Origin: Escherichia coli O157:H7
Lineage (GTDB): Bacteria > Pseudomonadota > Gammaproteobacteria > Enterobacterales > Enterobacteriaceae
NCBI RefSeq assembly: GCF_013167455.1
Contig: NZ_CP038328.1
Length of the DNA stretch: 64,000 bases
Reading direction: 5' to 3' (one strand)
Shown here: in pieces, positions 12,001 through 15,000 of the stretch
Layout: each line of letters begins with the position of its first letter
Position numbering within the stretch: position 1 is the first letter of the stretch
Position numbers: made by a program

Positions 12001-15000
12001 CAAGGTCATGCGCCAGTAATCCGTGCCAGTCAGGTTAATGGCAGTAACATTTATGCCTTCCGCGCCAATTGTTCGTATCGTCGCCACTTCGAGAGCTGGT
12101 TTCATGCTGACGGTGCCGCTCCGGGAACTATCCATGAGATGGAGTCTTATCACGGAATGTTGGCCTGTGTGGTCGCAGGAGCAGGTATTGCGCTTATTCC
12201 GCGCTCTATGCTGGAAAGTATGCCGGGGCATCACCAGGTTGAAGCGTGGCCGTTAGCTGAGCAATGGTGTTGGCTAACAACCTGGCTGGTCTGGCGTCGT
12301 GGTGCGAAAACGCGTCCGCTCGAGGCATTTATTCAACTACTGGATGTGCCTGACTCGACAAAACAGGGTTACCAATGAGCTATTTTTGATAGTTCTTGCG
12401 GCTAATATGCTCTATATAGTGATGTTCCGATGACTTATGACTATATGGGGCAAATATGGTTACGCCAGTAAGCATCAGCAATTACATATCTCTTCCTGAT
12501 GATTTTCCCGTTCGTAATATTGCACCGCAGGTAAAAGAAGTTTTAAAGGATTTTATTGATGCACTTAGTACAATAATATGTAATGAAGAGTGGGCACGTC
12601 TTTAAACATCAACTCAGCCACAAAAAAGATATTTAATAATCTTGACAACTTATCATATATTCAGAGGACTTCTTTTCGGGGTAACGACACGCTATACAAT
12701 GAAAAGGTTCAGTTTAAACTCACTTATCCCGCCAGGAATGGAAGACACAAAGAAAATATTGAATTTCAGGTAGTAATAAATTTAAGCCCTATTTATTTAG
12801 ATAATTTCCGCCATGATGGAGAAATTAATATTTTTTGCGCTCCCAACCCAAAGCCTGTTACTATGGGGCGCGTATTTCAGACCGGCGTCGAGCGTGTGCT
12901 CTTTCTGTTTCTGAATGATTTTATTGAACAATTCCCAATGATCAACCCTGGCGTTCCCATCAAAAGAGCGCATACACCACATATTGAACCCCTGCCTCCG
13001 GATCACCATACCGCTGCAGATTACTTACGCCAGTTTGATTTGCTTGTCCTGAATTTTATCTCTCGCGGTAATTTTGTCATACTCCCCCGATTATGGAATA
13101 ACTCTGAGGTTCACAGATGGTTCGTCAATAAAGATCCTAACTTGATCACCGCCATTCTCGACATAACGGACAGCGAATTAAAAGAGGATTTATTGCAAAG
13201 CCTGATGGATTCATTAGGTTCTAACAAACATGTACTACCCTAAGTCTGCATCTGTTTTTTATCCCTTTTAGCAGAACAAGAATCTCCTCATTTTCAGGAC
13301 TTGTTTTTATTTTTCGCCAATATGTTGTTACACTATCACCAATTTATGAATCCCAATGAAAGTGATTTGAATGACGTGTTGATGCCAGCATCATTAAGTG
13401 ATGATAAAATTATCAAACATATGGCGCGTAAGACCCTCAAACTGTTTGTAAAAAATGAAACACCGCCAAAAGTTACTCATGAAGATCTGGTGAAAAACAG
13501 GCCTCGCTCCCCTGTCAGACCGCCTATACCCGCAACCTCCAAAACGCCAGACATTCCTGATCGTCATTAAACCGTGATGTTTACCATCTCTCTGACGCGT
13601 GAAAGAATCAGCGTCAGAGAAACGGAAAACGCGATCCAGATCACAAATGCATTGTATTCACATCATTAACCGTTTTAAGATCATTTCATCACTTTTTCGC
13701 AACTCACCCGATAATCTGTTATGACAACAAACACTGTTTCCCGCAAAGTGGCGTGGCTACGGGTCGTTACGCTGGCAGTCGCCGCCTTCATCTTCAACAC
13801 CACCGAATTTGTCCCTGTTGGCCTGCTCTCTGACATTGCGCAAAGTTTTCACATGCAAACCGCTCAGGTCGGCATCATGTTGACCATTTACGCATGGGTA
13901 GTAGCGCTAATGTCATTGCCTTTTATGTTAATGACCAGCCAGGTTGAACGGCGCAAATTACTGATCTGCCTGTTTGTGGTGTTTATTGCCAGCCACGTAC
14001 TGTCGTTTTTATCGTGGAGCTTTACCGTTCTGGTGATCAGTCGCATTGGTGTGGCTTTTGCACATGCGATTTTCTGGTCGATTACGGCGTCCCTGGCGAT
14101 CCGTATGGCTCCGGCCGGGAAGCGAGCACAGGCATTGAGTTTAATTGCCACAGGTACAGCACTGGCAATGGTATTAGGATTACCTCTCGGGCGCATTGTG
14201 GGGCAGTATTTCGGTTGGCGAATGACCTTCTTCGCGATTGGTATCGGGGCGCTTATTACCCTTTTGTGCCTGATTAAGTTACTTCCCTTACTGCCCAGTG
14301 AGCATTCCGGTTCATTGAAAAGCCTCCCGCTATTATTCCGCCGCCCGGCATTGATGAGCATTTATTTGTTAACTGTGGTGGTTGTCACCGCCCATTACAC
14401 GGCATACAGCTATATTGAGCCTTTTGTGCAAAACATTGCGGGATTCAGCGCCAACTTTGCCACGGCATTACTGTTATTACTCGGTGGTGCGGGCATTATT
14501 GGCAGCGTGATTTTCGGTAAACTGGGTAATCAATATGCGTCTGCGTTGGTAAGTACGGCGATTGCGCTGTTGCTGGTGTGCCTGGCACTGCTGCTACCTG
14601 CGGCGAACAGTGAAATACACCTCGGGGTGCTGAGTATTTTCTGGGGGATCGCGATGATGATCATCGGGCTTGGTATGCAGGTTAAAGTGCTGGCGCTGGC
14701 ACCAGATGCCACCGACGTCGCGATGGCGCTATTCTCCGGGATATTTAATATTGGAATCGGGGCGGGTGCGTTGGTAGGTAATCAGGTGAGTCTGCACTGG
14801 TCAATGTCGATGATTGGTTATGTGGGCACGGTGCCTGCTTTTGCCGCGTTAATATGGTCAATCATTATATTTCGCCGCTGGCCAGTGACACTCGAAGAAC
14901 AGACGCAATAGTTGAAAGGCCCATTCGGGCCTTTTTTAATGATTCGTTTTAATGATTTCCAGGATGCCGTTAATAATAAACTGTACACCCATACATACCA

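Follow-up and report, generated by a model that had tools for sequence, protein, structure and literature searches.

Introduction

The closest described counterparts of the locus analyzed here are the intact yneK gene of Escherichia coli K-12 and the yneK pseudogene of E. coli O157:H7. YneK is an uncharacterized protein in which only disordered regions have been annotated, and in a pangenome association yneK, together with marB located 4.5 kb away, was weakly associated with adherence to bovine recto-anal junction cells (PMC11540155). The protein has neither a Pfam nor a KEGG assignment and occurs only in E. coli and Shigella; a yneK knockout had no significant effect in CAST host-factor validation (PMC12757027). 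In O157:H7 the pseudogene state of yneK is already known and is present in public annotation: the PGAP annotations of strains 2017C-4109, ECP19-598, and EDL933 give the gene the label "yneK, pseudogene, internal stop", and the Sakai record carries it as pseudogene ECs_2134. A literature search using old yneK locus tags returned nothing relevant, and Z2164 proved to be a different gene.

The present study analyzes yneK in a stretch of 64,000 nucleotides from an E. coli O157:H7 sequence (contig NZ_CP038328.1), referred to below as the window. Two lesions were found in the gene, and they are separate events with different histories, one a nonsense codon that is lineage-wide and the other a frameshift that is private to this sequence.

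Structure of the yneK locus

The yneK pseudogene lies at 12456-13570 (+) of the window, in the O157:H7 backbone, with ptrR/yneJ on one side and ydeA on the other, and the same neighbors accompany yneK in K-12, EDL933, Sakai, and ECP19-598. The features of the locus are as follows.

11497..12378 (+): ptrR (yneJ), LysR-type regulator, intact, 293 aa, upstream neighbor (ORF list; annotation of relatives)
12456..13570 (+): yneK pseudogene, whole span, at the same position as K-12 yneK (ORF list, alignment, NF033404 profile)
12456..12605 (+): Fragment 1, from ATG 12456, 49 codons, ending in TAA 12603-12605 (ORF list; NF033404 positions 1-47, 92 bits)
12593..12594 (+): private 1-bp deletion, removing the C of codon 47 (CGC) (alignment: TGGCGCACG > TGGGCACG)
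12596..13240 (+): Fragment 2, YneK residues 48-262 in the shifted frame (NF033404 positions 48-262, 477.5 bits)
13241..13243 (+): nonsense change GAA>TAA in codon 263, shared across the lineage (alignment, codon comparison, PGAP "internal stop" in relatives)
13244..13570 (+): Fragment 3, YneK residues 264-371 and the native stop TAA 13568-13570, in the frame of Fragment 2 (NF033404 positions 264-371, 208.8 bits)
13721..14911 (+): ydeA, L-arabinose MFS exporter, intact, 396 aa, downstream neighbor (ORF list; annotation of relatives)

An initial sequence-only reading had described yneK as disrupted by a frameshift and an in-frame stop, and this was borne out by the ORF list, the alignment, the codon comparison, and the profile matches. 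The span of 1115 nt is that of the K-12 gene (1116 nt, 371 codons and a stop) minus one base, in agreement with the single gene of about 371 codons that had been proposed. The same reading had placed the start codon at 12457, which is one base off, as both the sequence and the ORF list put the ATG at 12456-12458; its estimate that the expected frame ends after about 49 codons was accurate (ORF 12456..12605, TAA 12603-12605). Residues 1-46 of Fragment 1 are native YneK and the final three (A-R-L) are an out-of-frame read-on. The ORF list and alignment likewise confirmed that the remaining product is in another frame, is stopped at 13241-13243, and then resumes in the same frame. Taken mechanically, the ORF containing Fragment 2 extends over 12590..13243, with 217 codons from a GTG to the TAA at 13241-13243.

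The NCBIfam profile for YneK, NF033404, is an equivalog model with a curated cut-off of 40 bits. All three fragments were collinear on this profile and each scored far above the cut-off, while the K-12 orthologue scored 813.7 bits over positions 1-371. At the DNA level the locus aligned over its full length with the intact yneK of K-12 (97.7% identity), and this alignment together with the three collinear profile matches excludes a chance arrangement of ORFs. Alignment with an intact yneK was the check that had been suggested at the outset, and it showed exactly one gap and one stop-creating substitution. The gap is a single 1-bp indel, not a multiple of three, relative to both the O157 and the K-12 alleles, and the substitution places an in-frame stop (TAA) at a codon that the intact orthologue encodes as sense (GAA in K-12). 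A single uninterrupted frame of about 371 codons, as expected of a YneK family member, was not present, being broken by the frameshift at 12593/12594 and by the TAA at 13241-13243, and the locus is therefore assigned as a pseudogene of the YneK family without the status of a functional member. We regard the pseudogene status as almost certain.

The nonsense codon at codon 263

In a three-way alignment, codon 263 was TAA in both the window and the O157-type genome 2017C-4109 and GAA in K-12 DH10B. A 61-mer centered on this TAA had an exact match in 308 complete genomes, and the same 61-mer with GAA restored matched exactly in 25 other, non-O157 genomes. The occurrence of GAA within identical flanks in these 25 genomes indicates that TAA is the derived state. 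The 262-aa product that ends at the TAA was found in 19,867 sample blocks of a gene-position index. The nonsense codon cannot be an assembly error, the 308 independent genomes standing in for read support. Resequencing to a single open frame had been put forward as the observation that could overturn the disruption of yneK, but it cannot succeed given that 308 complete genomes of the O157 clade have the TAA found here at 13241-13243. Even with the C restored at 12593/12594, yneK would remain a pseudogene because of the lineage-wide TAA at codon 263. One lesion is thus fixed and the other private, so resequencing can address only the frameshift.

The single-base deletion at codon 47

The sole alignment gap in yneK, relative to both 2017C-4109 and K-12 DH10B, was the loss of a C between 12593 and 12594 (GTGGCGCACG > GTGG-GCACG). 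The deletion form at codon 47 reads GTGGGCACG and the standard O157 form reads GTGGCGCACG. In the alignment the deleted C fell outside any homopolymer run, and in the codon-by-codon comparison putting a C back at 12593/12594 rendered yneK identical to the O157 allele. A 61-mer centered on the deletion matched exactly in none of 5,426 complete E. coli genomes (0/5,426); the best full-length matches in this set were at 98.4% and all had the extra C. An exact-product look-up of the two products resulting from the deletion, of 217 aa and 49 aa, returned no record in the gene-product index, and the exact 31-mer across the deletion (GTAATGAAGAGTGGGCACGTCTTTAAACATC; wild-type counterpart GTAATGAAGAGTGGCGCACGTCTTTAAACATC) was absent from JGI metagenome contigs. 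This private deletion, which is probably genuine, is the sole unrecorded element at yneK, and it has no expected consequence.

Sequence divergence and searches for YneK relatives

The yneK locus has 39% G+C, compared with 48.7% for the backbone. Of the codon differences between K-12 and O157, 15 were synonymous and 7, with the nonsense change included, were non-synonymous. Upstream of the stop the differences comprised 8 synonymous and 1 missense, and downstream 7 synonymous and 5 missense. This split is compatible with past purifying selection and with relaxed constraint after the stop, the numbers being small; it may also be that the disordered C-terminal tail of YneK is simply less constrained.

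An exhaustive search with HMMER against 1.84 billion cluster representatives recovered only Escherichia YneK proteins or fragments, all with at least 55% identity, and a word-indexed search recovered 22 proteins, all YneK-like, of which those with a named source came from E. coli, Shigella, and E. albertii. YneK had no Pfam family above threshold (the best was DUF1140, E = 0.16), no relative in the PDB, and no PADLOC hit, and its PHROG hits were all non-significant. An AlphaFold2 model of YneK built on an 8-sequence alignment had a mean pLDDT of 43.1 and was unusable. A scan for promoters and terminators gave 6 promoter-like sites against 4.1 expected, which is background level, and no terminator.

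Other disrupted yneK alleles

Frameshifts at other positions were found in yneK of other O157 strains. In the Logan assembly SRR34320024 a C is missing at the equivalent of window position 12728, and in O157:H7 PV15-279 (AP018488.1) an A is missing at the equivalent of 12753. A 126-aa product from an internal ATG is called in both, and 113 sample blocks contain this product; the two examples read each have a frameshift unlike that in the window. Relative to the approximately 20,000 O157-type assemblies, 113 blocks would correspond to a second-hit rate in the order of 0.5%, a rough estimate that covers just those lesions giving rise to this gene call and may miss others. Among 5,419 records matching the yneK locus, approximately 1,186 cover it to less than 80%. 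In E2348/69 all that is left between ptrR and ydeA is a 5′ remnant of about 100 bp (3077-3178 of that locus), and loss of this type is an independent deletion of the same gene in phylogroup-B2-like strains. Protein databases contained several further forms, including a 217-aa truncation (645 members), a partial protein from Shigella sonnei, and a 259-aa form to which a foreign tail is joined. A deletion has also fused yneK to ydeA, and both E. coli and E. albertii have forms with internal deletions. The 217-aa cluster (P0016, 645 members) was considered as a match to the second ORF of the window and was rejected, as it is an unrelated N-terminal truncation. Overall, yneK, an AT-rich gene restricted to Escherichia and dispensable there, exemplifies recurrent, independent decay, and the allele in the window adds another case.

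Backbone and prophage in the rest of the window

Over its first 25 kb the window differed from several E. coli O157:H7 chromosomes by a single mismatch and a single gap. The genes are arranged as lsrCDBFG-tam-yneE-uxaB-...-sad-ptrR(yneJ)-yneK-ydeA-marC-marRAB...ydfJ, followed by a lambdoid prophage in ydfJ. Over the 30.5-kb backbone the nearest genome, ECP19-598, differed only by the yneK gap and one synonymous SNP, and EDL933 and Sakai each differed by three SNPs and the yneK gap. The synonymous SNP is at window position 10734 in sad/yneI (minus strand), at Gly221, which is GGG here and GGT in ECP19-598, EDL933, and Sakai. Also within the backbone, a full-length match (281.9 bits) to the Hfq-binding small RNA STnc560 was found at 20911-21124 (-), adjoining the small-protein genes mgtS/mgtT; we take this match to be MgrR.

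The gene ydfJ (~29180-30520) is truncated by the lambdoid prophage, which fills 30500-64000. The head module of this prophage includes a ClpP-protease/major-capsid fusion; EDL933 and Sakai (Sp11) have a prophage at this site with a different head module. At the prophage end, at approximately 31000-33000 (minus), there are three tandem genes identified, from their homology to annotated relatives (nleG5-2, nleG6-2, and nleG2-3 in Sakai), as encoding type III effectors of the DUF1076/NleG family. Matches to the small RNAs AgvB (96.5 bits), which is an anti-GcvB sponge, and STnc100 (149.9 bits), with a weak tRNA-like match (37.3 bits) beside them, occurred in the prophage at 59076-59137 (+), 59138-59330 (-), and 59417-59476 (-). 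ARAGORN made no call on the tRNA-like match, at the place of which relatives have an annotated tRNA-Met. A match to the sok antitoxin RNA (120.1 bits) at 61767-61942 (-) is next to hokD, a toxin gene that the annotation of relatives places in the prophage.

None of the complete RefSeq genomes matched the prophage half exactly, the best match being 99.9% over 25 kb and 99.5% over the most variable 3.2 kb. Compared with the prophage of MB9-1, which was the most similar and occupies another chromosomal site, only substitutions and one offsetting pair of indels were present. The paired single-base indels, at 56886 and 56973 and 87 nt apart, were seen against both ECP19-598 and MB9-1, and the intergenic sequence around them, which separates the prophage genes for DUF1378 and DUF6645, is rich in SNPs. 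This pair looks like mosaic divergence and not like errors. ECP19-598 is one base short of the window at three positions (46341, 49528, and 53702), all in the prophage half. MB9-1 has no gap at any of the three, and the annotation of ECP19-598 flags the portal gene and a tail gene in the prophage as frameshifted. These gaps look like lesions of ECP19-598 and not of the window.

Discussion

The yneK gene decayed in two steps. An ancestor of the O157:H7 clade gained the GAA>TAA change at codon 263, cutting the 371-aa YneK to 262 aa, and this allele was inherited by every close relative. Subsequently one C, which is plainly missing from the present sequence, would have been lost from codon 47. 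The reading frame from the native ATG now ends after 49 codons, and only a 46-residue N-terminal stub of YneK would be expected. Since yneK was already inactivated by the nonsense codon, the deletion would have been selectively neutral. It is expected that no functional YneK is made, and nothing is gained functionally by the two lesions.

Whether the deletion occurred in nature or in the production of the sequence bears on the second step only. We consider the deletion to be probably a genuine, neutral second hit. In favor of this, other O157 strains have real second frameshifts in their yneK pseudogenes that arose independently. An alternative explanation, which we consider less likely, is that the C at 12593/12594 was dropped in error during sequencing or assembly, in which case the true allele would be the standard O157:H7 yneK, still a pseudogene via the codon-263 TAA. 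Several observations would fit such an error. The deletion has no counterpart in 5,426 complete genomes, its products are unrecorded among roughly 20,000 O157-type sample blocks, it is absent from the JGI metagenome contigs, and a single restored base gives 100% identity to the common O157 allele; an assembly error would likewise show up as a singleton of this kind. Furthermore, the source assembly had no exact match among complete RefSeq E. coli genomes, and compression in Sanger sequencing can cause a base to be missed in a GGCGC context. Against an error, the site is not a homopolymer, and the rest of the 64-kb window looks clean, with no pattern of stray indels. The position of the deletion is also relevant, in that the lone indel of the backbone falls in a dead gene making up about 3.7% of it. 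This would be expected of a real mutation that is tolerated and less so of a random error, which by our reckoning would strike the 1.1-kb dead gene within the 30.5-kb backbone only about 4% of the time. If the deletion is real, we are inclined to think that it marks a sub-lineage of O157:H7 that is unrepresented among the complete genomes. It could then be used as a lineage-specific marker, and would provide another data point on the rate at which further lesions accumulate in an already dead gene.

A second alternative, which we regard as very improbable, is that yneK is split and not dead, with YneK activity still supplied by the fragments, that is, by the 217-aa product from GTG 12590, the C-terminal piece, or both. 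The 49-codon ORF does overlap GTG 12590 at its end, a geometry that would permit translational coupling, but the purine-rich GAAGAG abuts this GTG without a spacer, which would be poorly placed as a ribosome-binding site, and re-initiation there has no support from conservation. Gene callers in other O157 genomes do call ORFs of 82-106 aa after the TAA, and K-12 to O157 changes upstream of the stop are mostly synonymous (8 to 1 missense), as might be expected if the product were retained; downstream, however, the 5 missense to 7 synonymous changes are consistent with relaxed constraint. In addition, O157 strains break the yneK frame at different points and B2-like strains delete the gene, which speaks against a continuing need for it, and no segment of YneK has a known function (PMC11540155). 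Programmed ribosomal frameshifting or recoding was rejected, as GAG TGG GCA contains no slippery heptamer, the shift is absent from all 5,426 genomes, and other strains shift elsewhere.

The value of these findings is small, given that YneK has no known function and that its pseudogene state is already public, but the locus provides a clear small example of recurrent gene decay. There is also a practical implication for association studies that score yneK by presence or absence, in that pseudogene alleles could be scored as present, for example in the bovine-adherence pangenome association (PMC11540155).

Compared with known systems, the locus is nearest to the O157:H7 yneK pseudogene of PGAP annotation and of the Sakai record (ECs_2134), with which it shares the same position, the same neighbors, and the GAA>TAA change at codon 263, and to which its DNA is identical once one C is restored; the window alone adds the 1-bp deletion at codon 47 (0/5,426 complete genomes). 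With intact K-12 yneK (b1527, 371 aa) it shares gene order and 97.7% DNA identity, and its fragments are collinear on NF033404, whereas K-12 has one open frame. The two differ at 22 codons, of which 15 are synonymous, and the function of YneK is unknown in K-12 as well (PMC11540155, PMC12757027). In the other decayed yneK alleles the same gene has been independently inactivated by different lesions, namely the deletion remnant, the frameshifts at 12728 and 12753, the truncation, the fusion, and the internal deletions.
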